Assembly (NCBI GenBank): GCA_000991645.1
Contig: LBRX01000002.1
Span: forward strand, 1-44,311
Direction: 5' to 3'
DNA: 44,311 nt
Source of the DNA: Candidatus Moranbacteria bacterium GW2011_GWE2_36_40
Lineage (GTDB): Bacteria > Patescibacteriota > Minisyncoccia > Moranbacterales > GWC2-37-73
Position numbers and translations under genes: made by a program. Below, one piece after another: positions 517 through 44,162 of this stretch; the first letter of the stretch is position 1; the number at the start of each line of letters is the position of its first letter. The notes beneath the pieces were generated by a model. That model did not search any database, was not told the DNA's origin, and worked only from the letters and a program-made list of their open reading frames with translations.

Positions 517-590
517 TCCTAGTTAAATAGTATGGAATACCATAATTTAACCAGCCTCGACTAGACGTCAAGTCTAGGCGGGCGGGACAA
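517..590 (+). repeat. Family-A palindromic element with nested family-G insert
   Basis: CCTAGTTAAAT-hairpin-ATTTAAC[cagcctcgactagac..gtctaggcggg]CGGGACAA. Confidence 0.75.
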
Positions 591-597
591 GAACAAC

Positions 598-900
598 ATG
601 AACAAAAAACAAATTCACCCTGTTAAATCCGCCAAAAGCGGTGCGAAGCAATTAAACAGGGTAAAAAAAGTTGTGAAAAAAAATGTGGAAAAGGCACAAG
701 CATCAGGAGCTGAACTTCAAAAAATGGCTCTTAAGGAATATGACAAAATCAAAAAACAAATGGATGCAACTTCAAAAAAAGTTGAAGTTTATGTGAAAAA
801 GAATCCAGCTAAAGCCGCAGCAATCTCTGCCGGTATCGGTATGGCTCTCGGCGCAGTCGCCGGAATCCTGGCTGCTGGAGGAGAAAAGAAGAAGAAATAA
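598..900 (+). CDS. ElaB/YqjD (DUF883)-like tail-anchored protein
   Basis: Lys-rich coiled coil then 'YVKKNPAKAAAISAGIGMALG' C-terminal TM signature; N-terminus contains a family-A palindromic insert (HPVKSAKSGAKQLNRV). Confidence 0.75.
   Translation: MNKKQIHPVKSAKSGAKQLNRVKKVVKKNVEKAQASGAELQKMALKEYDKIKKQMDATSKKVEVYVKKNPAKAAAISAGIGMALGAVAGILAAGGEKKKK
617..665 (+). repeat. Family-A element inside a CDS
   Basis: ACCCTGTTAAAT...ATTAAACAGGGTAAA. Confidence 0.85.
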
Positions 901-1029
901 CCTGTCGCTCACGAGACACGTCACTCACGAATGACATGTCGAGCGACGGGTTAAACCAGTTAGTCAAGACTGACAGGTTAAGGTTCATATAACATAAAAC
1001 ATAGAACACGAAGCAAAATACAAAATTAA

Positions 1030-1063
1030 AAAAGCCTGCTCTGTTTCGATGGTGCAGGCTTTT
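1030..1063 (+). terminator. Intrinsic terminator
   Basis: AAAGCCTGC...GCAGGCTTTT. Confidence 0.6.
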
Positions 1064-1088
1064 GCTGTGGAATAAAAAATGTTATTAT

Positions 1089-1829
1089 ATGGATATGGAT
1101 AAAGAAGAATTTATTAAAAATAGTAGAGATTGGATTAAAACAAATAAAAAAGAAATTATCAAAAAATTTGCTAATGATATTTTGCCAATCCCAAATGTTA
1201 AGCCTTTTGTGATATTTATGGCTGGATCTCCAGGGGCAGGCAAGACAGAAACTTCAAAAAACTTCATCACTGAATTTGAACAATTATATTATAGTAAATC
1301 AGGAAAGAAACATCCTTCAATTCATGTAGTAAGAATAGACCCTGATGAAATAAGAGAAATGATTCCTGGTTATGATGGAGCGAATGCAGAATTGTTTCAA
1401 GGTCCGGCTTCGCTCGGAGTTGAGAAGGTATATGATTATGTTATGAAAAAAGATCTTAGCGTTATTGTTGATGGTACTTTAGCCAGTTATAGTGTTGCAT
1501 ATAAAAATATAGAAATTGCACTGCGAAAAAAAAGAAACGTTGCTATATTTTATGTTTATCAAGACCCCTTAATCGCTTGGAAATTTACCAAGGCAAGGGA
1601 AGATGAGGATGGGAGACATATTTCTAAAGCAAGATTCGTGGAAGCATTTTTTAAAGCAAAAATAAATACTAATAAATTGAAAAAAGAATTTGGTAATAGA
1701 ATTCAAGTTTTCCTAATTATAAAAAACTATAGTAATGCAACTGAAAAGACTGAATTTAACATAGAGAATATTGACAATTATTTGAAAGTTAACTATACTA
1801 AGCAATCATTAATGAAAAAAATATGTTGA
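1089..1829 (+). CDS. Zeta-toxin-family P-loop kinase
   Basis: Walker A GSPGAGKT, 'IDPDEIRE', 'VIVDGT', 'RED..GRHI'; start probably ATG 1089 or 1095 rather than TTG 1062. Confidence 0.8.
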   Translation: MDMDKEEFIKNSRDWIKTNKKEIIKKFANDILPIPNVKPFVIFMAGSPGAGKTETSKNFITEFEQLYYSKSGKKHPSIHVVRIDPDEIREMIPGYDGANAELFQGPASLGVEKVYDYVMKKDLSVIVDGTLASYSVAYKNIEIALRKKRNVAIFYVYQDPLIAWKFTKAREDEDGRHISKARFVEAFFKAKINTNKLKKEFGNRIQVFLIIKNYSNATEKTEFNIENIDNYLKVNYTKQSLMKKIC

Positions 1830-2002
1830 ATATATTTAAGAAAAAAATTGATAAAAAACTTGATTTTTTTGAATTGCCTTCTGGTGAACAAAAGAAGCTT
1901 ATTAAGCGTGCTGTTAATGGTGCTAATAAGGATCAGATGGAGCTTGTTAAACGGTATGAAAAAAAATATAAAAACCTCGAGTTGCATGAATGTGTGAGAT
2001 AA
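1823..2002 (+). CDS. 59-aa protein overlapping the zeta-like gene (candidate antitoxin/partner)
   Basis: Manually translated: MLNIFKKKIDKKLDFFELPSGEQKKLIKRAVNGANKDQMELVKRYEKKYKNLELHECVR*; ATG lies 7 nt inside the end of the zeta-like gene; just under the ORF-track cut-off. Confidence 0.7.
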   Translation: MLNIFKKKIDKKLDFFELPSGEQKKLIKRAVNGANKDQMELVKRYEKKYKNLELHECVR

Positions 2003-2084
2003 TATTTTGAAATTTAGTACTATTGACACTTTTTTAAATCTGTGTTAACTTACTTGTACATTCACGACTTAGGATTGAGACTCC

Positions 2085-2207
2085 ACCCTAGTTAAATAGT
2101 CAGCTGGTGCTGAATTTAACGGGGTAAACTTTTTGCATTGTTTTTGGGTGAAAACAGCGCACAAACTCCGGTTAAATAGATGGCTACGCCGTATTTAACA
2201 GGGTAAA
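2085..2207 (+). repeat. Two family-A elements (2085-2128, 2167-2207) in the rpoB leader
   Basis: GTTAAATAG-hairpin-ATTTAAC(G/A)GGGTAAACTTTTTG, twice. Confidence 0.85.
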
Positions 2208-2376
2208 CTTTTTGTCAAATCAGAGCTTTAAAAAGTCTCTGTTTGAAGAATTATTCTCGCAAGTAATGAGAATCAAGGACGCACAAATTTAATAGCCTTA
2301 ATTTAAACTCGCTGCTGAGCTCTTCGCTTTCGGACATTGATCCAAAGCAAGGAGAGAACTGGTGAGGGTTGTTTTT

Positions 2377-5848: not shown

Positions 5849-5902
5849 ACCTCATCCGTCCCGATTGCTATCGGGGCACCTTCTCCTTAAAAGGAGAAGG
5901 GG
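5849..5902. repeat. Family-B double-hairpin element
   Basis: ACCTCA-hairpin-CCTTCTCCTT AA AAGGAGAAGG. Confidence 0.8.
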
Positions 5903-9502: not shown

Positions 9503-9562
9503 TAGACAGCTTATTAGGCATTAGCTTTTTAGCTTCTTAGGGAATACGAAATACTTATAACC

Positions 9563-9590
9563 TGTCATTCCTGCGTAGGCGGGAATCCAG
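9563..9590. repeat. Family-C half element
   Basis: TGTCATTCCTGCGTAGGCGGGAATCCAG. Confidence 0.7.
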
Positions 9591-10801: not shown

Positions 10802-10820
10802 TATATTTCTTCCATGTCTT

Positions 10821-10863
10821 TCTCTCCTCAGTTGAGGAGAGATGTCCGTAGGACAGAGAGGTT
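10821..10863. repeat. Family-B element after lexA
   Basis: TCTCTCCTCA GT TGAGGAGAGA TGTCC GTA GGACA GAGAGGTT. Confidence 0.85.
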
Positions 10864-13454: not shown

Positions 13455-13460
13455 AAAACA

Positions 13461-13547
13461 CGATTCGAAACTACGAATGGCATTCGAATCTACGAACAAA
13501 CGCAAATTTTTTTCGTAGATTCGTATATGTTTAGTAGTTTCGTATCG
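13461..13547. repeat. Inverted TACGAA/TTCGTA array
   Basis: Imperfect IR filling the ftsK-HTH gap; a degenerate sister copy lies at 14588-14667. Confidence 0.75.
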
Positions 13548-13549
13548 GT

Positions 13550-14566: not shown

Positions 14567-14677
14567 TAAAATTAAAAAAAATAAATACGATCAAAAACAA
14601 CAAACTATTCTTTAATCTCCAAAAATTATTTTGTGTAGATTCGGATATATTTTGTAGTTTGGTATCGGTATACAAAA

Positions 14678-15830: not shown

Positions 15831-15940
15831 GTATTTATAGGGATAAGAACCGGGTGATTTATTGCCACGGTTCTTTTCTTTAAGATAAAAGTAAATAATA
15901 AATAAATCATTAATTTTTGCTCGGGGGAGCAATAAAAACA

Positions 15941-15983
15941 TCCCAGTTAAATAGTGCGGAGTACCGCAATTTAACAGGGTAAA
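15941..15983 (+). repeat. Family-A element
   Basis: TCCCAGTTAAATAGTGCGGAGTACCGCAATTTAACAGGGTAAA. Confidence 0.85.
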
Positions 15984-15990
15984 CAAAAAT

Positions 15991-16268: not shown

Positions 16269-16318
16269 ACCTCACATGTCATGAGTACATGACATCCTCT
16301 CCTTATCAAAGGAGAGGA
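16269..16318. repeat. Family-B element after efp
   Basis: ACCTCAC ATGTCATG..CATGACAT CCTCTCCTT..AAGGAGAGG. Confidence 0.85.
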
Positions 16319-16338
16319 AACTATTGAAGAAAGTTATT

Positions 16339-16903: not shown

Positions 16904-16969
16904 ACTAACAACTGACAACAATCAACTAACAACAAGTGATGAGTTGTAAGTTGTGAGTTGTAAGTTGTT
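16904..16969. repeat. Inverted heptamer array
   Basis: ACAACT/ACTAACA units facing AGTTGT(A/G)A units. Confidence 0.8.
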
Positions 16970-16971
16970 TG

Positions 16972-17178
16972 TTATTTAACTACAAAAGGTGCAAGTGCCA
17001 TCACGCGAGCACGCTTGATTGCTTGAGAAAGTGTTCGTTGGTGTTTTGTGCAAATCCCATGTCTTTTTGGTGGGTAGATTTTTCCTTGTGAGTTCATAAA
17101 TCTGCGAATTAGATAAGCATCTTTGTAGTCGATCTTATCCATTTTTTCATCACAGAAATAACATTGTTTTCGTTCCAT
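16972..17178 (-). CDS. rpsR: 30S ribosomal protein S18 (Zn-binding C+ form)
   Basis: CYFC...IDYKD...C.KHQR...AIKRAR. Confidence 0.98.
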   Translation of the reverse strand: MERKQCYFCDEKMDKIDYKDAYLIRRFMNSQGKIYPPKRHGICTKHQRTLSQAIKRARVMALAPFVVK

Positions 17179-17184
17179 AGATTT

Positions 17185-17263
17185 TAGTTGAGTGGTTGAT
17201 TAGTTGATTTGTTAATTAGGAATTTTTTGAATTTAACCTATTTAACTAATTAACTAAGTGACT
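17185..17263. repeat. Inverted octamer array (TAGTTGAT family)
   Basis: (TAGTTGAT)n-TAGGAATT..CCTA-(TTAACTAA)n. Confidence 0.8.
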
Positions 17264-17274
17264 GTTTAACTTAT

Positions 17275-17763
17275 TTAGAAGGGTACGTCTTCAATTCTAA
17301 CTTCATCAGTTTCTTCATCAAGATTGATGGTTGGAATTTCTTCTGCTATCGGTGCTTGTTGTTGAGAAGCTGGACGAGATGCTGCAGCGGCTGCACCCAT
17401 CGTTGCTGGAGCTGGTCTTGGTCCGGATGAACCTTGCGCACGCTGTCCCATCTGCATGTTTTCAGCAATTATTTCTGTTGTTTTCCTTTCGACTCCGTCT
17501 TTGCCGGTAAAGGAATTTGTTTCGAGTCTTCCTTCGAAATATGCTTCTTGTCCTTTGGTTAGATATTGTCCAGCAATTTCAGCTAAACGTCCCCAAATTA
17601 CAATGTTGTGAAATTCCGTTTTCTCTTGTTTTTGTCCAGCTTTATCATTCCAAGTTCGGTTTGTTGCGATTCCAACTCTAGTCACTGTTTGGCCAGAAGG
17701 AGTGGTGCGCAATTCAGGGTCTCTAGTTAAACGTCCGATGAGTTGAACTTTGTTTAAATTCAT
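17275..17763 (-). CDS. ssb: Single-stranded DNA-binding protein
   Basis: LNKVQLIGRLTRDPELR, acidic EDVPF tail, rpsF-ssb-rpsR synteny. Confidence 0.99.
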   Translation of the reverse strand: MNLNKVQLIGRLTRDPELRTTPSGQTVTRVGIATNRTWNDKAGQKQEKTEFHNIVIWGRLAEIAGQYLTKGQEAYFEGRLETNSFTGKDGVERKTTEIIAENMQMGQRAQGSSGPRPAPATMGAAAAASRPASQQQAPIAEEIPTINLDEETDEVRIEDVPF

Positions 17764-17765
17764 AG

Positions 17766-17843
17766 TAGTTGATTAGTTGATTAGTTGCATAGTTGATTAG
17801 GAATTTTTCCTATTTAACTAGTAAGCTAATTAACTATTTAACT
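17766..17843. repeat. Inverted octamer array (TAGTTGAT family)
   Basis: Same architecture as the 17185 copy. Confidence 0.8.
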
Positions 17844-17868
17844 TTTTAAATTTGTTTAACGAATTTAA

Positions 17869-18426: not shown

Positions 18427-18487
18427 ACGCGTTTTGTTTAATTAATTATAATTGATCAATAAAATTGTGAAAACTTTTTATTGAAAT

Positions 18488-18604
18488 AATTTTGAATTTC
18501 TAATTTTGAATTTCGAATCAAACTTGAATGATAGAATGTTTAAAACATTAAATCATTAAAAATTAAAAATTGATTCGAAATTCGAGTTTCAAAATTCAAA
18601 ATTT
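18488..18604. repeat. Inverted heptamer array (AATTTTG/CAAAATT)
   Basis: Imperfect ~115-bp IR built of heptamers. Confidence 0.75.
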
Positions 18605-18608
18605 CTAC

Positions 18609-19125: not shown

Positions 19126-19133
19126 ATTAATCT

Positions 19134-25471: not shown

Positions 25472-25490
25472 TAGCTTTTTTCTTTATCTT

Positions 25491-26069: not shown

Positions 26070-26167
26070 CGCGCTTCCTCCTTGAGAATGTTGTTTTGTA
26101 AGAACTATTGATACTTCAAAATAATATGATATATTAAATTGATATTAATGTCAATAATTATTTAATC

Positions 26168-27646
26168 ATGAAAAGAAATAATTTTCAAGATATTGTCAAA
26201 AAATTACCACAAGCACTAGGGGTGTATTTTTTTCGTGGGGGAAAAGGCAAAATTTTGTATATTGGCAAAGCCACAAATTTGCGAAGTCGAGTGGCTTCAT
26301 ATTTTCGCGGGCAGGGTTCGGAGTCCGACTCCGAATTTCGGAGTCGGACTCCGATCACACCACTTAGCGTGGCAGGTCGAAGTGAGTGGATTGGCTTGAT
26401 GGTTTCTCAAGTGGTCAACATTGATTTCGAGCAGACCGATTCTGTGCTGGAGGCTTTAATTTTGGAAAGCAACTCAATCAAAAAACATCAGCCAAAATAT
26501 AATACACTGGAAAAAGATGATAAAAGTTTTTCATATTTTGTTGTGACTAAAGAAGAATTTCCAAAAGTTTTGATTGTGAGGAAAACCGACTTGAAAAATT
26601 ATGTCATTCCGAACTTGTTTCGGAATCTAGAAGAGCCCAGCGAGATCCCTGAGCTAAATTCAGTGCAGGCTCTGAAACAAGTTCAGGATGGCAAAAAAAC
26701 AAACACTAAGAAGCTAATGCCTGAAAAGCTAAAAGCTATTTACGGTCCTTACACAAGCAAGCAGCAGATGCAGATTGCGCTTAAGATTATTCGCAGAATT
26801 TTTCCATTCCATGCTGGCAAACAAAAAACTGAAAAAGGTTGTTTGGATTTTCAAATAGGGATGTGTCCTGGGCCTTATGCGGATGCAATTTCCAAAGTTG
26901 ATTACAGGAAAAATATCTGTGGAATCGAAATGATTTTGCAGGGAAAGAAAAAAAGTTTGATTTCAAGAATGGAAAAAGAAATGCAGACTTTTTCCAAAAG
27001 AAACGAATTTGAAAAAGCGGCAGTCCTCCGAAATAAAATTTTTGCATTGCAACACATTCGCGACGTGGCGCTGATGACAAGAGATTTTGAGCCTGTTGAA
27101 TTTTCTAAAAAGCTAACGCCTAATAAGCTAAAGCCTGCCCGCATTGAGGCTTACGACATCTCTAATATTTCAGGCGATCACGCTGTGGGCTCGATGGTAG
27201 TTTTTTCCGCCAAAGGCGGATCCGCCTTTGGCGGAGAAAACTGGCTGCCGGAAAAATCGCAGTATCGAAAATTCAAAATTAAAACAGTAGAAGGTTCAAA
27301 TGATGTGGCGATGATGAAAGAAGTTTTGTCGCGAAGATTTAATAATGACTGGACAATGCCAGACTTGATTTTGTTAGATGGTGGACAGGGACACGTTAAT
27401 ATGGCAGGGGACTTAGTACGCGAATTAGGACTAGATGTATTGATTGTTGGTGTAGCTAAGGGTAAGACGCGTAAAAATCTCAATTTCCAATTTCCAATTT
27501 CCAATAAAATCCAAATGACTCAATTTCCAAGGGAATTGCAGGATTTTTTGAATGATAAAAATTCAGTAAAGCACATAATGGATGAGGCGCATCGTTTTGC
27601 AATCTCTTATCACCGAAAATTACGCAGCAAAAACTCTTTAAAATAG
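26168..27646 (+). CDS. uvrC: Excinuclease ABC subunit C (short form without HhH)
   Basis: GVY..LYIGKA GIY-YIG domain, UVR domain, RIEAYDIS, DGGQG, DEAHRFAI; multiple in-frame repeat inserts. Confidence 0.95.
   Translation: MKRNNFQDIVKKLPQALGVYFFRGGKGKILYIGKATNLRSRVASYFRGQGSESDSEFRSRTPITPLSVAGRSEWIGLMVSQVVNIDFEQTDSVLEALILESNSIKKHQPKYNTLEKDDKSFSYFVVTKEEFPKVLIVRKTDLKNYVIPNLFRNLEEPSEIPELNSVQALKQVQDGKKTNTKKLMPEKLKAIYGPYTSKQQMQIALKIIRRIFPFHAGKQKTEKGCLDFQIGMCPGPYADAISKVDYRKNICGIEMILQGKKKSLISRMEKEMQTFSKRNEFEKAAVLRNKIFALQHIRDVALMTRDFEPVEFSKKLTPNKLKPARIEAYDISNISGDHAVGSMVVFSAKGGSAFGGENWLPEKSQYRKFKIKTVEGSNDVAMMKEVLSRRFNNDWTMPDLILLDGGQGHVNMAGDLVRELGLDVLIVGVAKGKTRKNLNFQFPISNKIQMTQFPRELQDFLNDKNSVKHIMDEAHRFAISYHRKLRSKNSLK
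26318..26354. repeat. 37-bp palindrome in uvrC (family D)
   Basis: TCGGAGTCCGACTCCGAA-T-TTCGGAGTCGGACTCCGA. Confidence 0.9.
26602..26693. repeat. Family-C element in frame in uvrC
   Basis: TGTCATTCCGAACTTGTTTCGGAATC...CTGAAACAAGTTCAGGATGGCA. Confidence 0.85.
27206..27235. repeat. Perfect 30-bp palindrome in uvrC (family E)
   Basis: TCCGCCAAAGGCGGATCCGCCTTTGGCGGA, read as SAKGGSAFGG. Confidence 0.9.
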
Positions 27647-27740
27647 TTGAAAGACAGTTACTGTTGTTGCGTATCAATAAATACAAATCAAGACTGAACT
27701 TCGGGAGGATAGGCGGAGCTCAGTTTTGTGCAATGGAAAT

Positions 27741-28187
27741 ATGATTCAAAAAATATCACGAAATTTTTTATCAAGTTTTTTGTTGGCTGCAATCCTTTTG
27801 GTTGCTTCTGGTTTTTCTGATGGAACGATTGCTCTCGCCTCGAATCGACAAGATGTCTCATCGAGTCGAAGCGGGTCAGCTGCCATGAATTCAATGGATA
27901 ATAATATTACATTGGATCAAACAATGCATGCTGTAACTGGAGCAGTAATGATCATGCATCAAGATGAAACTTCAGATAATAATGCATTGAAGCCTTGCTG
28001 TGAAGATAAACAAGGTGGTGCGTCAGCAATTCAATCCTCTGCTTTCAATCAAAATATTAAATTTTTTCCTCTTGGCACCGAAACAATTATTGATCCAAAT
28101 TATATTTTTCAATATAAATTAATAGAATTATCTTCTGCTTCGCCACCGAAGCCAGATATTATTTCTTCCGTCCTCTTGAAAGAATAA
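27741..28187 (+). CDS. Exported Met/His/Cys-containing protein upstream of the copper genes (possible DUF2946-like leader)
   Basis: Signal-like N-terminus, MHAV..MIMH, PCC, C-terminal SPPKP. Confidence 0.6.
   Translation: MIQKISRNFLSSFLLAAILLVASGFSDGTIALASNRQDVSSSRSGSAAMNSMDNNITLDQTMHAVTGAVMIMHQDETSDNNALKPCCEDKQGGASAIQSSAFNQNIKFFPLGTETIIDPNYIFQYKLIELSSASPPKPDIISSVLLKE
27834..27875. repeat. Family-G hairpin inside a CDS
   Basis: CTCGCCTCGAATCGA...TCGAGTCGAAGCGGG; related to the insert at 552-583. Confidence 0.65.
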
Positions 28188-28259: not shown

Positions 28260-29744
28260 ATGCAAAAAATAATAGTTTCTATTGGTGGTATGCATTGTCG
28301 ATCTTGTGAAATATTGGTAGAGGAAAAACTTTCTGAAATTTCTAAAATTAAAAAAATAGAAGTTAACCATAAAAAAGGTGAAGCTGAAATTTTTTATGAT
28401 TCTCAAAAACCCAGCATGATGGAAATTGAGAATGCAATCAGGGAATCGGGATATACTATTGGGGTAATTGAAAAAAAACCATTGTTCAGTAAAAACGTTA
28501 GTGATTATAAGGACCTGGGAATCGCATTCCTGTTTCTTTTTGGTATCTATATTGTAGCAAAAAATTTGGGCTTGACTGATATTGGTATTGGTAACACAAG
28601 CAATCCGTCTAGTCTTGGAGTAGTTTTCTTGGTGGGAATCACTGCTGGAATTTCAACTTGCATGGCATTGGTTGGCGGTTTGATTCTGGGAATTTCTGCT
28701 CGTCATAGTGAAAAAAACCCTGAAGCTACACCTGCACAAAAGTTTCGTCCGCATTTATTTTTCAATGCCGGCAGAATCGCAATCTATGCGTTGTTGGGAG
28801 GTGTGCTCGGACTTATTGGGTCATCATTTCAGTTGTCAGGAATGACTCTGGGAATTTTGACAATCACAGTTGGCATTGTGATGTTAATTCTTGGATTAAA
28901 ATTAATTGGAATTTTTCCCAGATTGGAGAATGGTGGAATTACATTGCCGAAAAGTATTAGCAGTGCGCTTGGTATAAAAAAAAGCACCAAAGAATATAGT
29001 CACAAAAACTCGTTCCTCATGGGCGGGCTGACATTTTTTCTGCCATGCGGATTTACACAGGCAATGCAGCTTTACGCTGTAAGTAGTGGAAGTTTCACTC
29101 AGGGAGCTTTGATTATGGGAATATTCGCACTTGGAACTGCTCCGGGACTTTTGGGAGTCGGTGGGCTTGCCAGTGTGGTGCGTGGAATTTTTGCCAAGCG
29201 CTTCTTTAAATTCTCTGGAATACTGGTAATATTTTTGGCTATATTTAATATGGCTAATGGGTATAATCTGACAGGTTGGCAATTATTAACTAACAACTCA
29301 CAACCCACAACTAGTAACCTGCCTACCGGACAGGCAGGCAAACAAAATGATCCGAATGTGACGATGGAAAATGGAGTGCAGGTTGTGAGGATGAAAGAAA
29401 TAGCAAGCGGTTATTCGCCGAACAAATTTACCATCAAAAAGGGTGTGCCGGTCAAATGGATTATTGATGCTCAGGCACCATATTCATGTGCTAGTAGTTT
29501 GGTGGTTTCAAGCTTGAAAATTCAAAAAACTTTGAAAGCCAGTGAAAATATTATTGAATTTACCCCAAAAGAGACTGGTAAAATCCCATTCTCTTGCAGT
29601 ATGGGGATGTATACGGGACTTTTTAATGTTGTTGATGAAAATGGTGGCAGCGAAATTGTCGAAGAAATAAGTGACAAGGACAAAACTCCTAATGGAATAT
29701 GTAATATGCAAGGATGTACAATAAATAAGGATCAAACTAAATAA
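28260..29744 (+). CDS. HMA + DsbD_2/TauE-like membrane + cupredoxin-domain protein
   Basis: [33 protein letters not shown]. Confidence 0.85.
29288..29338. repeat. Heptamer run plus family-F hairpin inside a CDS
   Basis: (AACTAAC)-like units followed by CCTGCCT ACCGGAC AGGCAGG, read as [17 protein letters not shown]. Confidence 0.75.
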
Positions 29745-29755
29745 TTAAAATTATT

Positions 29756-32215
29756 ATGAAAAGAATAAACTTATCACTTTCTGGTATGCACTGCGCGTCG
29801 TGTGCAATGTTAATTGAGCGAACATTGGGAAAAACGCCAGGTGTTCAAAAAGCCACCGTTAATTTTGCAGCTGAAAAAGTATTAATAGATTTTGATGAAA
29901 AGTTGACCGATCCGCAGAAATTGATTGCTGCTATAGTGAAGGGTGGATATGGTGCTCAGGAAATTGATGCTAAAGACAGTGAATTTGAAAAGAAAAAAAG
30001 AGACCATGAAGTCTCGGAATATTTTTCGAAATTTATTTTTAGCGCCTTGCTCAGTGCACCGATGTTGTATTTTATGTTAGGTGATTTTTTCAAATGGCTT
30101 CCTGGCGCAAAACCAGTTATGCCATATGTTGCAATGATATCCTTGTTGCTGACAATTCCGATACAGTTTTTTATTGGCAAAGGTTTTTATAAGGGTGCAT
30201 GGGCAGCGTTGAAAATGAAAACTTTCAACATGGATAGTTTGGTGGCAATTGGAACTTCAACCGCATTTTTATATAGTTTGATTAACTATATTTTGTTTGC
30301 AGTGAAAAATCATACAATATTTGGAATTGGCGGCGAAATGGTTCCAGATTTATATTTTGAAACTGCAGCCTATTTGATTACGTTTGTAATCTTGGGTAAG
30401 TGGTTGGAAATAAGAACAAAAGGAAAAACCTCTGATGCAATCAAGAAGTTGATGGGACTTCAAGCGAAAACTGCTCGTGTGATCCGCGATGGTCAAACAC
30501 TCGACATTGCTATTGATGATGTGATTCATGGTGATATTATTATTGTTCGTCCGGGAGAGAAAGTTCCAGTGGATGGAAAAATTACCAAGGGTTCTTCTGC
30601 TGTGGATGAATCTATGATTACTGGGGAAAGCTTGCCAGTGGAAAAAACTATCGGTAGTAATGTTGTTGGAGGAACAATCAATAAAACTGGAAGTTTTGAA
30701 TTTGAGGCTACAAAAATAGGATCAGAAACAACGTTGGCGCAGATTATTCGCTTGATTGAAGAAGCGCAAGGTTCGAAAGCACCAATTCAAAATTTTGCTG
30801 ATAGTATTTCTGCCTGGTTTGTGCCAGTAGTAATTATTTTAGCTATCTTAACATTTGGAGTATGGTATTTTGTTCTTGGTTCAACGTTAGCTTTCGCTCT
30901 GATGGCGTTCACATCGGTTATAGTAATCGCATGTCCATGTGCGCTTGGTTTGGCAACGCCAACCTCTCTTATGGTAGGAACGGGCAAAGGTGCTGAATAC
31001 GGAGTGCTTGTGAAGGGTGGAGAAGCCCTGGAGGCAGCCAGTAATATCTCAGCTGTAATTTTTGATAAGACGGGAACACTTACTCATGGAAAACCAGAGG
31101 TTACTGATATTCTTGTATTTAGCACGCAAGATGAGGATGAAATTTTGGCAATAGCTGCAAGTTTGGAAAAACTCTCAGAGCATCCATTGGCTGAAGCTAT
31201 TTGCAATCACGCAGACGAGGAAAATATTGATCTAAAAGAAGTTCAAAATTTCAACTCAATAACTGGACGAGGTGTACAAGGAGATATTGATGGAACAACA
31301 TATTTTATTGGAACGCGCAAGTTGATGATTGAAACTTTAAATTTGGAAAATAAAGAGATTGACCCTGTTAAATATGGTCCGCTTATGGCGGAATTTAACA
31401 GGGTAAACCGAAAAATGGTACGTCTAGAAGAACAGGGCAAGACCGCGATGATTTTGGCAACCAAAGAGGGAATAGTTGGAATCATTGCAGTTGCAGACAC
31501 TGTTAAAGAAACATCTCGCGAAGCGGTGGAAAAATTAAAGAAAATGGGAATAGAGGTATTCATGATAACAGGTGACAACAAAAGGACTGCAAATGCGATT
31601 GCCAAAATTGTAGGCATTGATGATGCTCATGTTCTTGCTGAAATATTACCTGAAGACAAAGCTAAAGTAGTAAAAGCTCTGCAGGATGGAAATATAAATA
31701 AATTCAATCCATTATTTCAAAATTCAAAATTCGAAATTCAAAATTTAGGAGTGAAGCGACGAGTGGCTATGGTTGGAGATGGCGTTAATGATGCTCCAGC
31801 ACTTGCTCAGGCCAATGTTGGAATTGCAATGGGATCAGGAACTGATGTTGCCATGGAAGCAGGCGACATTGTGATTATGAAAAGTGACCTCAATGACGTT
31901 GTTACTTCGTTTCAGCTTTCAAAAGAAACGATGTCGAAAATAAAACAAAATATGTTTTTTGCTTTGTTTTATAATGTGATTGGAATTCCGATTGCGGCTC
32001 GCGTGTTCTTTGCATTCGGATTAGTTTTGAAGCCAGAACTAGCAGGACTTGCGATGGCATTGAGTTCTATTTCAGTGGTTGGTAACTCATTGTTGCTTAA
32101 ACTTTTTAAACCAAATAAACGGAATTATATATCCTTGCTTGCACCGTTTGTGATGATGGCAGTGTTTACATACGGATTTATTTTGTTTGCACAGTTGAGC
32201 AGTAGCATGAAATAA
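29756..32215 (+). CDS. copA: Cu(I)-exporting P1B-type ATPase
   Basis: GMHCASC, TGES, CPC, DKTGT, SEHP, GDGVND, YN and MALSS transmembrane ligands. Confidence 0.93.
31362..31407 (+). repeat. Family-A element in frame in copA
   Basis: Perfect 12-bp IR ACCCTGTTAAAT/ATTTAACAGGGT; read as [16 protein letters not shown]. Confidence 0.9.
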
Positions 32216-32240
32216 AATATCATTTAAAAAATAAATAAAT

Positions 32241-32273
32241 AATCAGGTCAATCTTTTGATTGATCTGATTTTT
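32241..32273 (+). terminator. copA terminator
   Basis: AATCAGGTCAATC TTTT GATTGATCTGATT TTT. Confidence 0.65.
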
Positions 32274-32368
32274 GTTACGTAATATATTACGTAACAAAAC
32301 TTGATATTTTTAGGTTATTTGCATTTAGATTGGTATCCTTTACATTTCACGTTTTTTCTGATATCATT

Positions 32369-32482
32369 CCCCGCAGTAGAAATTCGAACTTTTCTATGTA
32401 ATCAAAAATTTTTGTAGCAGCTAGGGTATAGTATTCATGCAGATTTTTATTAGATAATTTCGAATTTCACTGCATGGGTAAA
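32369..32482. mobile_element. MITE-like element related to family A
   Basis: CCCCGCAGTAGAAATTCGAA...TTCGAATTTCACTGCATGGGTAAA. Confidence 0.55.
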
Positions 32483-32527
32483 CTCTAGACAATTTTCAAT
32501 TTACAATTCATAAATTTTCAACATAAT

Positions 32528-35320
32528 ATGGCTTCCAAGAAAGATAATTTGAAAACAACTGGTGAAATAGTTATTAAAGGTGCGCGAGTTAATAATTTGA
32601 AGAATATTGACGTAAATATTCCACGGGATAAGTTTGTTGTTATTACTGGACTTTCTGGTTCAGGAAAATCTTCATTGGCATTTGATACTATTTATGCTGA
32701 AGGTAATCGTCGATATATGGAGGGTCTTTCAACTTATGCTAGGAATTTTCTTGATCCTCAGGCTAAGCCTGACGTGGATAAGATCGAAAATCTTTCACCC
32801 CCTATTTCTATTGATCAAAAAAGTATTTCTCGTTCTCCGCGCTCAACCGTTGGAACATTGACGGAGGTGTATGATTATTTGCGCATTATGTATGCAAAAA
32901 TAGGTGTGTTGCATTGTCCTGAATGTGGAACATCAATGCAGAAAAGAAGCAGCCAGGAAATCTTGGATGAAATCTTAACTTTCTCTCATCATACTCAGAT
33001 AGCATTTTTATCAAAACCCAAAGATAAAAACCAAGGCAAGGAACTCTTAAAACAAATTGCTCAAATGGGCTATGCTAGAGTTCGTTTTAATGGAAAAATG
33101 TTTACTGTTGCTGAATCAATGATGCTTGAGGAAAATTCATTTGAAACTGATATTGAGGTTGTTATTGACAGGATTGTTTTGGACAAAAAAAAGCCTGATA
33201 TTGAAAGGATGCTGGATTCAATTGAAACTGCAATGAAGATTGGAGGTGCTTCCATGAAACTTTTATTTGATAACACTGAAGAGAGAAGCTATAACCAAGA
33301 TTTTTTTTGTAGTAAATGTGGTATAAAAATAAAAGAAGTAACACCAAGACACTTTTCATTTAATAGTCCGGAGGGTGCATGTGATACCTGCGCTGGTCTT
33401 GGTTATACATTGAAGGTTAACGAAGAACTCATTATTCCAAATAAAAATCTTTCATTAATTGAAGGAGCAATTCAACCATGGAGTAAATCTGGAGGAAAAA
33501 TAAGTGGACAAAGTGTCCAGTTGTTGACATTGAAAGATGTTGCAAAAAAACACAAGTTTTCAATGAATGTGCCAGTTAAAAAATTGTCATCCCAACAACT
33601 TGCAATAGTGTTGTACGGTGGTAATGATTTTGAAGGTGTTATTCCTGCTTTGGAAAAGAAATATCGTGAAACAAAGTCTGATTATGTTCGAACAGAAATT
33701 GAAAAGTACATGACTGCGTACACATGTCCAGCTTGCGATGGTAAGCGTTTGAAAAAGGAATTTTTGGCAGTTGAGGTACAGGGAAAAACTATTGATGAAA
33801 TGGTCGGTTTGAGTATTATGCATCTTAGGGAATTTTTTAAAAATTTTGAAAATTGGACTATTGGTTCTCAAGAAAAAAGTGTTGCGCAACCAATTGTGCG
33901 TGAAGTTTTGCAGCGTCTTTTTGCCCTAGAAAATGTTGGTCTCGAATATTTAAATCTTGGAAGAAGTGCCCAAACAATTTCTGGAGGTGAGGCACAACGA
34001 ATTCGTTTGGCAGCACAACTCAACTCTCAGTTAATGGGAATTGTATATGTGTTGGATGAACCTTCAATTGGGCTTCATTCTCGTGACACGGAAAAATTGG
34101 TTGCAACAATTAAAGCGCTTCAAAGCATCGGCAATTCATTGATTGTTGTTGAGCATGACGAAAGTATTATTAAGGCAGCTGATTGGATTGTTGATATGGG
34201 TCCTGGAGCTGGTGAAGAAGGGGGAGTTGTCGTTTTTGAGGGAAACTATGATCAACTTTTAAAATCCAAAAACCTTACCGCTCAATATATTTCTAAAAAG
34301 AAAAAAGTTTCCGACAAGAAAAAAATAAGATCAGGTAGTGGAAAATTTATTGAAATTTTTGGAGCTGAAGAAAATAATTTAAAAAATGTTGATTTGGCTA
34401 TTCCATTGGATAAATTCGTTGTAATTTGCGGTGTTTCAGGCAGCGGAAAATCAACTTTGGTAAAAAATATTTTAGCTAAAGCGTTATCGCGACATTTTTA
34501 TAACACCAAGGATTTGCCAGGAAAACACAAAAAAATTAAGGGATTTGAACATATTAAAAAAGTTATCAGTATAAATCAAAATCCTATTGGTCGCACACCA
34601 CGCTCTAATGCTGCAACATACACAGGAGTTTTCTCTCATATTCGTGATCTTTTTGCTGAGGTTGAAGAAGCAAAAAACAGAGGATATACTGCTAGTCGCT
34701 TTTCTTTCAATATGAAGGGTGGACGTTGTGAAGTTTGTCAGGGAGATGGATCAAAGAAAATTGAAATGCATCTTTTGCCGGATATGTATGTGAAATGTGA
34801 AGCTTGTGGTGGAACAAGGTTTAGTAAAAAAACTTTGGAAATTGAATATAAAGGATTTAATATTGCTCAAATTTTAGATATGGATGTGCGTTTGGCACTT
34901 CGATTTTTTGCACGGCATCCGCTTATTGCAGAAAAATTGAAAACCATGGAAGATGTTGGTCTTGGATATTTGAAACTTGGACAAAGTGCCACAAATCTTT
35001 CTGGTGGAGAAGCACAGCGCATAAAATTGGCGACTGAACTGGCTCGTAAATCAACAGGAAGCACATTGTATATCTTGGATGAGCCAACCGCTGGCCTTCA
35101 TTTTGATGATATTCGCAGATTGCTTGGAGTTTTGAATGCATTGGTGGATAAAGGAAATTCTGTAATTGTTGTTGAACATAATTTGGATGTTATTCGTGAT
35201 GCTGATCATGTGATTGAGCTTGGGCCAGATGGTGGGGAGCTTGGTGGTTATCTTACTTTTGCCGGCACGCCAGATCAACTCAAAAAAGACAAGAAAAGTT
35301 GGACCGCGAAATACCTCTAA
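32528..35320 (+). CDS. uvrA: Second UvrA paralog
   Basis: Full-length, two ABC domains and Zn fingers; clearly diverged from the 22502 copy. Confidence 0.95.
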
Positions 35321-35907: not shown

Positions 35908-35919
35908 AAATTAAATTCA

Positions 35920-36017
35920 GAACCACTGATTAACACTTGATTATTTTGATTACACATGATTTTTAAATCAGTGAAATCATGTGATCTCATGTGATCTCAT
36001 GTGATAATCAATGGTTC
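35920..36017. repeat. Inverted repeat element with an internal 10-bp tandem repeat
   Basis: GAACCACTGATTA/TAATCAATGGTTC ends; TCATGTGATC repeated about three times. Confidence 0.7.
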
Positions 36018-36783: not shown

Positions 36784-38459
36784 ATGAAGAAAAACATCCA
36801 AAAAATTATTAAAAGTGCCTTAACTGAGGCAAAAAAGTCCAATGGCTGGCCTGATTTTGAGTTGAATGAAATTATAGTGGACTACCCAAAAAGCGAGCAA
36901 TTTGGGGATTATACTTCAAATATTGCCATGATTCTAGCCAAGAAAATTGGTAAAAATCCAATGGAAACGGCAAATTATCTCAAGGAGATTATTTGTCGTC
37001 CTGAACTTGTTTCAGGATCCCGTGATGTTACGAATGGCGCGCAAAGCATAGAGATGCTGAAACAAGTTCAGCATGACATGACAGGGATTTTTGAAAAAAT
37101 AGAGGTGGCTCAGCCGGGATATCTTAATTTCTATCTTTCTAAAAAATATTTGCAAGATATTGTTGAAAAAATAAATACTGAGAAAGAGAAATTTGGAAAT
37201 TCTGAAGTTGGAAAAAATATTAAAATTAACAATGAGTTTATTTCTGCCAATCCGACCGGACCACTTCATCTTGGAAATGGACGTGGTGGATTTTATGGAG
37301 ATTCTCTTTCACGCGTTTTGCGAAAGGCTGGATTTGAGGTAACGAATGAATATTACGTTAATGATGCTGGTGGGCAAGTTGAAAAATTAGGGCATAGTGT
37401 TTTGAAAGACGAAGAGGCTTCATACACTGGAGAATATATTGATGAGCTTAATAAGAAGTATGCAAAGCTAAAAGATGTACGAGAGATTGGAAAAATTGCA
37501 GCTCGTGAAGTTTTGGAAAATATCATCAAAAAAACTACCAAAGAAAAAATGCAAATTTCTTTTGATGAATGGACAAGTGAACAAAAACTTAGTGATGAGG
37601 GATATGATAAGCGCGCTATTTCATTGCTCAAGGAAAAAGGATTAACCTATGAATCAGAAGGTGCGCTGTGGCTTAAGACTACTGACTTTGGTGATGATAA
37701 AGACAGGGTTTTAATTAAAAAAGATGGTAAAAATGCTTATATAGCTGGAGATTGTGGTTATATGCTCAATAAAATTGAAAGAGGGTATTCGCGATTAATT
37801 ATGGGACTTGGTGCTGATCATCACGGATATGTGTCGCGGCTTAAAGCAGTGGCGTTAGCGCTTGGATTTAATGAAGATTTTAGAATAATTATTTCACAAT
37901 TGGTTAGGTTGATAAAGGATGGTAAAGAAGCCCGCATGAGTAAACGCGCAGGAAATGTTATTAATCTTGATGATTTGATTGATGAAATAGGACACGATGT
38001 AACAATATTTTTCTTCTTGATGTATTCTCCTGATACTCATATGAATTTTGATTTGGGATTAGCAAAAGAGCGTAGTTCTAAAAATCCTGTTTTTTATGTG
38101 CAGTATGCACATGCGAGAATCGCCAGTATTCTTGCAAAGTCACAAATAACTAACAATCTACAACAAACAACAGAAAAAACAAAAAATTTGAATTTTGACC
38201 GTAGTAAGTCGTTAGTTGTTAGTTGTGGGTTATTGACTCATGAAAAGGAATTGAGTTTGAAAGTTATGAGGTTCACAAACTTCCGCAATATGCAATGAAA
38301 TTGGCTGACAAATTTCATAGTTTTTATGATGCATGTAAGGTTATTGATGAGAATAATGAAGAGTTAACAATCGCTAGACTTTCTTTGATAAATGCTGTTA
38401 GAATAGTGTTAGCTGAAGTCCTTGAGCTTATTGGGGTGGGTGCACCTTCTAAGATGTAA
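36784..38459 (+). CDS. argS: Arginine-tRNA ligase, frameshifted near 38259
   Basis: SANPTGPLHLGNGR, MSKRAG, YVQYAHAR; C-terminus ESYEVHKLPQY...FHSFY...APSKM* continues in the -1 frame (38259-38459). Confidence 0.93.
36994..37078. repeat. Family-C element in frame in argS
   Basis: TGTCGTCCTGAACTTGTTTCAGGATC...GATGCTGAAACAAGTTCAGCATGACA. Confidence 0.88.
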
Positions 38460-38498
38460 AATTAGCTTAAAAGGTGGTTTAAATTGAAAATTATGAGA

Positions 38499-38573
38499 AG
38501 TTAATTAGTTGCATAGGTAATTAGTTAGATAGGAATTCCTAATTAACTAATAAACTAATTAACCAATCAACTA
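38499..38573. repeat. Inverted octamer array (TAGTTGAT family)
   Basis: Same architecture, reverse orientation, directly before the GT4 ATG. Confidence 0.8.
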
Positions 38574-38578
38574 AATAT

Positions 38579-42748: not shown

Positions 42749-43021
42749 ATGAAATATGCAAATGCAGTAGGAGTCAAAAGGCAGGGAAGGCTTGGCGATA
42801 TAGTAGCTTCTCTGGAAAGAATTTCGGAGATATTCTTTCTGATTGTTCTTTCTATTGCAATGATTGCTGTGTATTTTTTTGTCGGCACATTTCTTTTTGA
42901 TCATGTTGTTTTGGTCAAAAAAGGCTTGCTTGCACTTTTCGCCTTCTTTCTTTTTCTCTTTTTTTTAAATTCGCTTACGCAAGATTTTTTTAGTGAGCGT
43001 GAGCAAATTTACTGGGAGTGA
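42749..43021 (+). CDS. Small two-TM orphan protein
   Basis: Purine-rich SD-like leader, two hydrophobic helices, terminator follows. Confidence 0.55.
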   Translation: MKYANAVGVKRQGRLGDIVASLERISEIFFLIVLSIAMIAVYFFVGTFLFDHVVLVKKGLLALFAFFLFLFFLNSLTQDFFSEREQIYWE

Positions 43022-43044
43022 TTTGATTTTTCCAAAATTTTTTT

Positions 43045-43076
43045 GGTTACCGGCAACTTGTCGGTAACCTTTTTTT
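43045..43076 (+). terminator. Intrinsic terminator
   Basis: GGTTACCGGCAA C TTGTCGGTAACC TTTTTTT. Confidence 0.75.
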
Positions 43077-43121
43077 ATTTTCCACAAACATGGTTATACA
43101 CGACGTATGGTTTGTTAGTTG

Positions 43122-43238
43122 GCTTTTGATTTGCTTGTTTCCTTTTTCGGCACGCTCTTGGTCAAAATTCATGGCCAATCGCTCTTAATTTCCTGTCGTC
43201 ATTAAACGGCCTCGAAAGAAAACAGCCAAATCAAAAGC
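43122..43238. mobile_element. MITE-like IR element
   Basis: GCTTTTGATTTG...CAAATCAAAAGC perfect 12-bp termini, with imperfect pairing further inward. Confidence 0.5.
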
Positions 43239-43264
43239 TGGGAGTTATTTTTTGAAACCAGATA

Positions 43265-43294
43265 TTGCGCAGGACCCAACAAGCACCCTATAAT
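43265..43294 (+). promoter_or_regulatory. recO promoter (leaderless geometry)
   Basis: TTGCGC-18-TATAAT-6 nt-ATG. Confidence 0.5.
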
Positions 43295-43300
43295 GAAAAG

Positions 43301-44023
43301 ATGGAATATAAATACACTGGCATTATTTTAAATAAGCGTGATGCGGGAGAAACTGACAGGATTTGCACAATCTATACTCTTGAAGGTGGCAAAATTCGTT
43401 CATTGGCTAAAGGTGTTCGCAAAGCTCAGGCCAAACTGGCTGCTTCATTGGAAAATATCACTTTGGCTGATATCACAATTGTTAGAGCTAGAGGTTTAGG
43501 TAAGATAACAGGTTCTATTGTGGAAAATAATTTTTCTTTTCTTAAACAAGATATTGATGCATTGACGGAAGCTTTTGGAGGACTAGCCATCTTTGATAAA
43601 ATGGTTGACTATGAACATCCTGATGATGCAGTGTTTGTCTTGCTCAAGGAATATCTTGAGGCGGTTGAAATTGCTGCCGTGGAAAAATTGTCGGAAAAAC
43701 AAATTTTGTTGCGGCTTGGTTTTACAATAAAATTATTGGATTCTCTTGGCTATGCGCTTGAGGTTGATAAGTGTGTTGCTTGCGGGGGAAAATTAAACGA
43801 AAAATCAATTTCTTTTAATTCTCGCTCTGGCGGTGTTTTGTGTGGAAATTGTCCTTCGCAGCATGATGATTCCCTGAGTTTGCCCATAAGCTCTAATGCT
43901 ATAAAAATGATAAGATTATTTTTGGCAAACAATATGGCCACACTTGGAAAAATAAAAGCTTCTCGTCAGGATTATGACAGTGTTCGTTTGGTGGTGGATG
44001 ACTTTTTGAGATGGACACTATAA
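43301..44023 (+). CDS. recO: DNA repair protein RecO
   Basis: GIILN..GETDRI..YT..GKI..AKGVRK, CxxC..CxxC Zn finger; ATG 43301. Confidence 0.95.
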   Translation: MEYKYTGIILNKRDAGETDRICTIYTLEGGKIRSLAKGVRKAQAKLAASLENITLADITIVRARGLGKITGSIVENNFSFLKQDIDALTEAFGGLAIFDKMVDYEHPDDAVFVLLKEYLEAVEIAAVEKLSEKQILLRLGFTIKLLDSLGYALEVDKCVACGGKLNEKSISFNSRSGGVLCGNCPSQHDDSLSLPISSNAIKMIRLFLANNMATLGKIKASRQDYDSVRLVVDDFLRWTL

Positions 44024-44024
44024 A

Positions 44025-44162
44025 AATTTTTAATTTTCAATTTTTAATTTCTAAACAATCCGCCAGCTGGCGAACTAGTGACTTAACTTTAAAATTTTTA
44101 AAAAATTGATGCATTGGAACATTGAGATTTGTTTGAAAATTGAAAATTGTGAATTGTAAATT
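44025..44162. repeat. Inverted heptamer array with nested family-E half site
   Basis: AATTTT(C/T) units...TCCGCCAGCTGGCG...GAAAATT units. Confidence 0.75.

Follow-up and report, generated by a model that had tools for sequence, protein, structure and literature searches.

The contig LBRX01000002.1 of Candidatus Moranbacteria bacterium GW2011_GWE2_36_40, an uncultured groundwater bacterium (assembly GCA_000991645.1), was analysed over its whole length of 44,311 nucleotides, which we call the window and which is the complete contig C2 of this genome (G000). Its gene set is one of housekeeping and DNA repair, with rpoB, rpoC, lexA, ftsK, a RodZ-like gene, recA, efp, ssb, rpsF, uvrB and a DsbA-like gene identified by Pfam in the first half and uvrA1, uvrC, an HMA/DsbD/cupredoxin gene, copA, uvrA2, a TP-methylase gene, argS, a GT4 gene, ileS and recO in the second, and short hairpin repeats lie between and within these genes. 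We consider it likely that the window is full of selfish hairpin repeats resembling repetitive extragenic palindromes (REPs) or MITEs (transposable elements of miniature size with inverted repeats), and that a minority of the copies has been fixed inside genes; the repeats fall into at least 10 families. The genome (1.006 Mb, 63 contigs, 36% G+C) belongs to the candidate phyla radiation (CPR), as had been assumed in a preliminary description of the window made from its sequence alone: the 80 ArgS relatives are recorded as Candidatus Moranbacteria/Moraniibacteriota of the Parcubacteria group, with the best match being 83% identical. The same description had seen no mobilising enzyme in the window, and indeed no transposase was found among the 30 open reading frames (ORFs) of the window scanned with Pfam; scans of the window with Rfam (gathering threshold) and for tRNAs also gave no match. 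An alternative genetic code was considered but rejected, since table 11 leaves the long ORFs without a break.

In a genome-wide scan 351 hairpins reached a score of at least 12, compared with 76 in a second-order Markov control, and at a score of at least 14 the numbers were 165 and 9, respectively. Hairpin clustering gave 233 clusters in total, 20 of them with at least three members, and the commonest 14-mers of the genome all belong to hairpin repeats. As an 11-mer frequency map proved too noisy for this AT-rich genome, the window was compared with the genome using blastn, which resulted in 37 short repeated segments, 13 of them within long ORFs. RNA folding of 14 elements gave z-scores between -3.0 and -8.6 for 13 of them, the exception being a one-armed octamer array in copA. 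From the 351 hairpins 216 are intergenic, 32 are located at a gene edge and 103 lie in ORFs, in a genome that is 87% coding according to a crude gene call. The GC-richer hairpins are found more often in convergent gaps (24 per 109) than in divergent ones (9 per 98).

Several of the families do not carry a terminal tag, namely the 30–37-nt twin hairpins (families C and E), a 45-nt compound hairpin (A), the CTCTCC..GGAGAG hairpins (B), a 21-nt hairpin (G), a 91-nt nested hairpin (F) and AT-rich elements of about 130 nt with arms made of tandem octamers. Families C and E have seven loci each genome-wide; family B2 has 12, of which ten are intergenic and two in ORFs, and family F has 24 (20 intergenic, three in ORFs and one at a gene edge). 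Thus the preliminary description, which had counted at least seven hairpin families plus arrays, had proposed to count their copies genome-wide and had stated that most of them occur both between and inside genes, agrees with the census: further copies were found across the genome, and most families have members in both settings. At five loci the right arm of family A, TTTAACAGGGTAAA, was also seen directly 5' of an ATG start codon, as part of a common motif of about 22 nt (window 2192-2210 and 15965-15990; elsewhere in the genome C1:9965, C3:7639, C11:526, C31:9899 and C1:3637). The family A element may supply or imitate a leader for ribosome binding.

Nine inserts in five genes were verified by alignment with orthologs (three in uvrC, one in uvrA1, two in copA, two in argS and one in the HMA/DsbD gene), and all of them keep the frame and contain no stop codon. 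The preliminary description had named these genes as carrying frame-preserving inserts and had suggested the comparison of UvrC, UvrA, ArgS and CopA with close orthologs, and in this comparison most relatives show a gap or a different insert at the respective site. The family C palindrome in the GIY-YIG domain of UvrC, which was aligned with 19 relatives, has no counterpart in 14 of them, while the other five carry other inserts, two of which read ..IPN.F.DL....LKQVQHD.. and thus correspond to the peptide of a dimer of the TGTC-tagged REPs described below. Sixteen of the 19 show a gap in place of the family E hairpin in the RNase H-like domain; one relative has the same family there and another one (L008) the peptide NLPTGQAGG, which is the type encoded by family G in the HMA/DsbD gene. 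Dozens of public contigs match only the twin hairpin itself (27203-27235) and diverge on both sides, and in contigs from co-occurring relatives a shorter sequence replaces 26279-26368 and 26590-26725 in uvrC as well as 31348-31408 in copA. The AlphaFold2 model of UvrC, which was built from 18 sequences and is weak overall (mean pLDDT 62.5), places the first insert (residues 49-70, pLDDT below 50) and the third (residues 351-356) in low-confidence loops of otherwise confident GIY-YIG and RNase H-like domains; since residues 120-243 show a low pLDDT throughout, it is uninformative on the second.

The hairpin in uvrA1 is missing in ten of 13 relatives, present in one from the same genus and replaced by six extra residues in another, with the remaining sequence being cut at the site. 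In CopA the 45-nt family A hairpin is missing in all 13 relatives and its DNA junctions show no target duplication longer than 1–2 nt, whereas the segment derived from the octamer array is missing in eight of the 13 and is made of other octamer variants in the remaining five. Among 38 ArgS relatives the closest one has no insert at the position of the TGTC heterodimer and the next closest carries the same family; eight of the 38 have an insert of at least 20 residues at this site, seven of them different ones. The array near the ArgS C-terminus is common only to the closest relative, L022, and the hairpin in the HMA/DsbD gene is absent in close relatives. Two further cases named in the preliminary description fared worse. 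The putative insert in ORF 27726-28187 is only a weak palindrome with 71% complementarity and has no family copies. In the supposed DUF883 gene (ORF 598-900, which Pfam does not call DUF883) a genuine hairpin is present at 614-665, yet its place at the very start of the ORF makes an insert doubtful; since its right arm is found directly before start codons at five further loci, this hairpin may just as likely be a 5' leader.

We also noticed that argS is frameshifted at 38230-38480: after ..THEKELSL its frame ends at 38298, and the last approximately 85 residues of ArgS (SYEVHKLPQYAMKLADKF..APSKM) follow in another frame, with about 16 residues of the closest relative missing. An error of the assembly, variation between strains or a pseudogene could account for the frameshift.

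In-frame copies are also found elsewhere in the genome. All 15 of the scanned host ORFs possess Pfam domains, and those outside the window include UvrD, PolA, Fpg, TatD, LeuRS, FolD, the gamma subunit of ATP synthase and a Mur ligase. Genes for replication and repair (uvrA, uvrC, uvrD, polA, fpg and tatD) appear to be frequent among the hosts, which echoes the survey of Di Nocera, De Gregorio and Rocco from 2013 as far as its accessible part goes (PMC3733652). The elements of the window are listed in Table 1.

Table 1. Repeat elements of the window with their coordinates, strand and setting (z, folding z-score; MFE, minimum free energy).
Position	Strand	Element	Setting	Fold, evidence or remark
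112-141	.	family B2 hairpin CTCTCC..GGAGAG	intergenic, upstream of ORF 161-496	repeat map
511-582	.	family-A-like hairpin, then palindrome CCAGCCTCGAC..GGCGGG	intergenic	repeat map
614-665	+	family A compound hairpin CCCTGTTAAAT..ATTAAACAGGG	first codons of ORF 598-900	
2084-2210	.	two family A hairpins	upstream of rpoB	
5850-5901	.	hairpins including CCTTCTCCTTAAAAGGAGAAGG	intergenic, rpoB-rpoC	blastn repeat map
9506-9540	.	short array of AGCTT.. type (family H)	downstream of rpoC	
9563-9590	+	TGTC-tagged REP monomer (CGTC-type)	downstream of rpoC	
10812-10860	.	family B2 hairpin	directly after lexA	
13459-13549	.	family F 91-nt nested hairpin (CGATACGAAACTACGAA..)	between ftsK and RodZ-like gene	z -7.8
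14635-14669		family F half copy		
15939-15984	.	family A hairpin	downstream of recA	
16269-16320	.	B2-type hairpin	downstream of efp	
16907-16977	.	inverted heptamer array AACAACT / AGTTGTT	efp start	
17183-17269	.	inverted octamer array (TTAGTTGA type)	downstream of ssb	z -4.8
17759-17849	.	inverted octamer array	between ssb and rpsF	
18476-18615	.	~140-nt element with arms of AATTTYNA octamers		z -5.4; its 14-mers are the genome's commonest
19001-19126	.	second octamer-armed element	upstream of uvrB	z -6.5
22938-22985	+	hairpin insert	in frame in uvrA1	z -3.7; alignment with 13 relatives, DNA junctions
25487-25548	.	B2 hairpin	directly after uvrA1	
26318-26354	+	twin-hairpin palindrome, family C (SESDSEFRSRTP)	in frame in uvrC, GIY-YIG domain	z -7.3
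26599-26696	+	TGTC-REP tag-outward dimer, 98 nt	in frame in uvrC (YVIPNLFRNL..ALKQVQDGKK), variable linker	z -5.1
27199-27242	+	30-nt twin hairpin with flanks, family E (SAKGGSAFGGENW; hairpin AKGGSAFGGENW)	in frame in uvrC, RNase H-like domain	z -8.6
27473-27527	+	coding segment derived from an octamer array (KNLNFQFPISNKIQMTQFP)	uvrC	UvrC alignment, repeat map
29316-29345	+	hairpin CCTGCCTACCGGACAGGCAGG, family G (NLPTGQAG)	in frame, variable linker of HMA/DsbD/cupredoxin gene	
31362-31406	+	family A hairpin, 45 nt	in frame in copA	z -6.9
31715-31748	+	one-armed octamer array, not a hairpin	read as peptide in copA	z -0.83
32379-32523	.	octamer-armed hairpin	upstream of uvrA2	
35915-35995	.	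repeat ATTCAGAACCACTGATT..	upstream of TP-methylase gene	hairpin cluster member
36994-37078	+	TGTC-REP tag-outward heterodimer, 85 nt	in frame in argS (ICRPELVSGS..MLKQVQHDM)	z -6.1
~38145-38226	+	inverted heptamer-array hairpin (..TEKTKNLNFDRSKSLVV..)	in frame near argS C-terminus	MFE -19.4 kcal/mol
38499-38578	.	inverted octamer array	between argS and GT4 gene	z -4.4
43124-43162	.	part of a ~88-nt intergenic repeat (..TTTCCTTTTTCGGCACGC..)		hairpin cluster member, repeat map
44024-44160	.	octamer-armed element	after recO	z -3.6
44199-44311	.	contig-end repeat		common to 10 other contig ends

One group of repeats stands out by a terminal tag. When the four bases outside every small hairpin were tabulated without bias, TGTC proved to be enriched 14.6-fold on the 5' side and CTGG, the complement of a CCAG tail, 8.3-fold. 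The genome has 53 tagged monomers (30 intergenic, 17 in ORFs and six at gene edges), of which 52 begin with TGTC and one with CGTC, a form that was also seen in other genomes; the four letters 3' of the stem are CCAG in 20, CTAG in seven, CTCG in five, CTCT in four and CTAC in four of them. The stem has eight pairs and always starts with A-T and T-A, followed by a loop of 4–5 nt. In the CTGAA subfamily all 23 copies show this start, eight paired positions and a 5-nt loop, and stem position 3 is paired in 21 of the 23 with covarying bases (C-G in ten, G-C in six, T-A in four and G-T in one), while the TTCCCGTG subfamily combines an 8-bp stem with a 4-nt loop. Loop positions 13 and 16 were also seen to covary (C..G in CTTGT, T..A in TTTAT; window 37054-37078 and 26602-26626), even though such a pair would close a loop of only 2 nt. 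One subfamily occurs in tag-outward pairs, mostly heterodimers and mostly combining ATCC, ATGC or ATTC stems, which are found on C8, C10, C13, C19, C23 (two), C46 and C49 in addition to those in uvrC and argS. The upstream flanks of 46 TGTC copies are unrelated right up to the tag and show no conserved target except for a T at -1 in 26 of them; one 28-mer is present in 11 identical copies, and no target duplication was seen by eye in the flanks of three dimers. Allowing one mismatch at most, the 25-nt pattern of the TGTC REP was found in 61 of 301 genomes sampled from the phylum, a single one of which holds as many as 62 copies, and the 30-nt twin hairpin of family E in 16 of the 301; reversed-pattern controls gave no match.

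These features fit the superfamily of CGTC-tagged REPs, which has been described to show a terminal CGTC, often TGTC, a stem of 8–9 bp starting with A-T and T-A, a 4–5-nt loop, a CCA tail and tag-outward (HH) dimers that are often heterodimers, and which includes dRS3 from Neisseria as well as RPE-4 (CGTC-4) and RPE-6 (CGTC-1) from Rickettsia (PMC3733652). The TGTC family of the window shares the tag, stem, loop, tail, HH heterodimers and intragenic copies with them. As REPs inside uvrA, uvrB, uvrC, polymerase and tRNA synthetase genes were already reported in the accessible part of that survey, intragenic repeats of this kind are known. Differences are found in the host, since Patescibacteria are not listed there, and in a small GIY-YIG gene that the repeats bracket here, as GIY-YIG is not mentioned in the accessible text (PMC3733652). 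The same source gives no dedicated transposase for the CGTC REPs and no REP-associated tyrosine transposase (RAYT) gene flanked by CGTC units.

A search with PF01541 revealed four stand-alone GIY-YIG genes of 83–114 residues in the genome. One of them (C19:19319-19633, 105 residues; domain match 19337-19558 with 54.1 bits at a cut-off of 22.6) lies between tag-outward TGTC REPs at 19266 and 19666 and forms with them a unit of 401 nt, which ends 3 nt before the end of the contig. Homologues of this gene are present in 55 of 101 genomes of the order. At 30 loci in the order a strict REP was found on both sides in 12 cases (11 of the 13 best matches) and on at least one side in 20, and in four genomes of other families at six and nine of 20 loci, respectively. 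This adds up to 18 of 50 loci in the phylum with REPs on both sides, compared with none of 82 control windows from the same loci, only two of which had a REP on either side. Two pairs of copies within one genome (G076 and G096) are alike exactly from the left to the right tag and unrelated outside. Moreover, from 12 gene-less copies of the same subfamily in the genome of the window, six continue with GTT.. like the left sub-terminus of the unit and four show, 40–60 nt further on, a motif AAATT..GGGC.GGAT like its right sub-terminus; by sequence they would look like internal-deletion derivatives of the GIY-YIG unit.

GIY-YIG homing endonuclease genes and stand-alone proteins of the YhbQ/Slx1 type are well known, and the protein from C19 resembles them as a single-domain protein of about 100 residues that is encoded in a short multi-copy unit. 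It had no NCBIfam match above the cut-off (the best one being a group I intron endonuclease with an E-value of 0.0017) and no relative in the PDB was found by sequence. Unlike homing GIY-YIG genes, the C19-type gene is located outside of introns and inteins and is bounded by REP hairpins, and no literature linking GIY-YIG genes with REPs or bacterial MITEs was found in searches that covered few subscription journals. Two other small GIY-YIG genes, C32:1580-1900 and C5:30700-31050, have different ends: one lies inside a tRNA gene, of which the first 22 nt occur twice, and its left end carries a hairpin CCCGCCTCG..CGAGGCGGG, and the other one is bounded by inverted repeats of about 23 nt. On C32 the left end of the GIY-YIG gene holds a relative of the second palindrome at 511-582 in the window.

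A second association between a gene and a repeat involves a family that is absent from the window. The Pfam search of the genome for Y1_Tnp gave no match, and a RAYT-like gene (C5:36590-37165, minus strand), the Y1 domain of which is split by an in-frame hairpin, was found only by tblastn with an ORF from the same genus as query. Its protein scores 29.4 bits with Pfam Y1_Tnp (cut-off 23) and 64.3 bits with NCBIfam REP_Tyr_transpos (E-value 1.1e-17, below the 80-bit cut-off). The gene is associated with GTAG..CTAC palindromes (GTAGAGACGC), of which 2.5 copies are located upstream, a variant downstream and one copy inside in frame, whereas no copy was found on C2. Y1 genes are present in 68 of 121 genomes of the order, and from 16 genes of about 225 residues that we examined ten show the same private hairpin up- and downstream and eight carry their own flanking hairpin also inside in frame, at +201 to +230 nt. 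An internal hairpin was seen at +300 in the gene of G000 (C5:36500-37320) and in one gene of G007, and at +354 in the other G007 gene; each RAYT-like paralog carries a different hairpin sequence. To our knowledge a cognate hairpin inside a RAYT gene and in frame has not been described. No Y1 gene was flanked by TGTC REPs among the 12 evaluated from five REP-rich genomes (17 loci fetched, five not evaluated), in agreement with the survey from 2013 as far as it is accessible (PMC3733652). Searches of the genome with rve gave no match, so that no DDE transposase was found in the assembly, and the search for the TnpB zinc ribbon gave a single match of 17 bits below the cut-off. The preliminary description had suggested a search for RAYT or GIY-YIG genes flanked by the hairpin families, which was thus positive for two of them, GTAG with the RAYT-like gene and TGTC with the GIY-YIG gene.

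On this basis we propose that the elements would multiply as selfish DNA with most copies ending up between genes, and that a copy inside a gene would survive only if its length is a multiple of three, its frame is free of stops and it hits a tolerant loop or linker; the surviving copies would then be read through as 7–33 extra residues. Reading by eye shows no stop in any of the three phases of families C and E; in the TGTC REP two of the three phases are free of stops, and both of them are used (VIPNLF.. in uvrC and ICRPELV.. in argS). The TGTC REPs would represent the two ends of a unit of about 0.35–0.4 kb with the GIY-YIG nuclease of about 100 residues as its sole gene. Whether this nuclease is the partner enzyme of the TGTC REPs, with gene-less dimers and singletons as internally deleted, non-autonomous derivatives, appears to us nearly balanced with a slight lean to doubt. 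A more specific and clearly more tentative idea is that the CGTC/TGTC REPs are the non-autonomous progeny of a so far undescribed tiny element, in which two tag-outward hairpins enclose the gene for a structure-specific GIY-YIG nuclease of this size; the nuclease might cut at extruded hairpins, and repair might copy or replace them. If true, hairpin cutting followed by repair would explain the varied REP subtypes in one protein loop and the DNA repair genes as frequent hosts. The preliminary description had spoken of non-autonomous mini-elements that seed new loops in proteins, and the dispersed families, the gaps in orthologs and the two gene–repeat associations bear this out, while mobility and the driving enzyme are what we infer from them.

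Some observations weigh against this proposal. A partner gene did not turn up for any of families A, B, C, E, F and G or for the octamer arrays, 21 of the 50 GIY-YIG loci have no strict REP on either side, and neither a transposition event nor a pair of empty and filled sites for the whole unit nor an activity of the enzyme was observed. Translation of the inserts is predicted from the sequence. The same protein site is occupied by different families in different genomes, as seen for UvrC and ArgS, and random insertion followed by selection may not fully explain such hot spots, which strong tolerance of the site or hairpin-directed replacement would account for. Almost all contig ends of the genome overlap other ends by about 95–105 nt (typically 99) in groups of up to 15, so the assembly halts at multi-copy repeats, the interiors of which, possibly insertion sequences, are missing from the bin; as the assembly breaks at repeats, absences in this genome are weak evidence.

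The rival explanation that we rate highest, though it seems rather improbable, sees the GIY-YIG gene as a passenger similar to a homing endonuclease that targets the spacer of existing TGTC-REP dimers, while the REPs themselves are multiplied by a RAYT in trans or by a host process. The two gene copies in G076 are identical over most of their length, with substitutions only near the 3' end, and yet differ in the stem of the left REP, and such mosaics fit homing into existing dimers as well as mobilisation of the REPs. In addition the REP subtypes next to homologous genes vary widely, and 46 REP copies in the genome of the window contrast with a single GIY-YIG gene flanked by them. On the other hand, the sub-terminal sequences kept in gene-less copies are the pattern expected from deletion derivatives, and the lack of TGTC REPs around the evaluated Y1 genes deprives the REPs of an obvious RAYT. 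The latter also makes it unlikely that RAYT-type Y1 (HUH) transposases, for which an action on single-stranded hairpins has been proposed in the case of classical REPs, would move every family in trans in this way. The RAYT-like protein between GTAG palindromes, the wide occurrence of Y1 genes with private hairpins in the order and the copA insert without target duplication would agree with it, but the RAYT-like genes go with a private hairpin each and not with the families of the window, and the RAYT genes in the accessible part of the published survey are not flanked by CGTC units (PMC3733652).

Less probable still is that the hairpins are cis-elements selected by the host, such as terminators, mRNA stabilisers or pause sites, with in-frame copies being kept for the function of the peptide or the RNA hairpin. 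The preference of GC-richer hairpins for convergent gaps and the covarying stems would be expected from this, as would some hairpin being retained at the same protein site in relatives. However, their presence among close relatives is patchy, the inserts lie in low-confidence loops, the same sequences of 25–30 nt appear in unrelated contexts across the phylum and the AT-rich arrays are not depleted at divergent gaps. A local origin of the palindromes by slippage or template switching in low-complexity linkers, which would render the family likeness only apparent, seems very improbable and is already contradicted for the GC-rich families. It could apply to the octamer and heptamer arrays, which are tandem and whose unit sequence varies between orthologous sites as in copA, but not easily to near-identical copies of 28–45 nt with unrelated flanks, to the clean 45-nt indel in copA or to the recurrence of such sequences in 61 of the 301 sampled genomes, where the control gave no match. 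Finally, we give hardly any credit to the idea that the inserts are artefacts of assembly or binning or are removed before translation like an intron or intein. No support for it was found apart from an assembly that is fragmented at repeats, whereas the same inserts are present in independent assemblies (uvrA and uvrC in G002, argS in L023), public contigs match 25565-26575 and 28745-32893 without a difference, and the nine verified inserts keep an open frame and have no match in Rfam.

In-frame palindromic repeats as such are already known from the Rickettsia palindromic elements (RPEs) and from intragenic REPs, and the analogy drawn in the preliminary description holds with regard to near-identical copies with unrelated flanks, inserts that are precise gaps in orthologs and mostly intergenic copies. 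According to the available descriptions, by which alone the two were compared, the RPEs likewise comprise several palindromic families in a small genome that are located in frame in housekeeping genes and leave the ORF intact, while the elements described here are mostly shorter (28–90 nt), belong to an unrelated lineage and have candidate partner genes. Short non-autonomous inverted-repeat elements able to extend or interrupt ORFs are also part of what is accessible on the MITEs of Coxiella burnetii (PMC5896051), but unlike MITEs of DDE transposons the elements of the window show no target-site duplication at the copA insert and no DDE transposase in the assembly. The Y1 HUH gene on C5 with its flanking palindromes and the several such genes in relatives resemble the REP/RAYT (REPIN) systems as far as these are described in the accessible text (PMC3733652, PMC6006769), from which they differ in the location of the GTAG family outside the window and in the cognate hairpin within the transposase gene. 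Full-text searches, outside of which most subscription journals remain, revealed no paper on REPs in Patescibacteria, and a term search in the accessible text of PMC12306157 and PMC6006769 found no mention of them.

Repeats of this kind offer a rare and direct route for adding loops to essential proteins, here with about nine in-frame inserts in five housekeeping genes of a genome of about 1 Mb. As different families are found at the same loops in different relatives, the process would be frequent in this lineage, and such inserts will often be encountered when genes are called or protein families modelled in CPR genomes. The proposed role of the GIY-YIG nuclease also offers a testable answer to the question, open since 2013, of what moves CGTC-type REPs. 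If it is indeed their partner, the unit of about 0.35–0.4 kb would be among the smallest autonomous DNA elements known from bacteria, and REPs, coding palindromes of the Rickettsia type and nucleases that cut hairpins would be joined in a single mechanism.

Some other features of the window were noted along the way. Its two ends (1-99 and 44199-44311) are among the overlapping contig ends of the genome, and an ORF upstream of rpoB (1062-1829) has a Zeta-toxin/AAA_33 domain (Pfam E-value 1e-36). A perfect 30-nt palindrome is located upstream of uvrA2 (32270-32299) and a 33-nt palindrome upstream of uvrA1 (22448-22480), with a similar TACGTAA..TTACGTA palindrome having one further copy in the genome on C39. 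Both may act as operators for the SOS-type set of genes found in the window.

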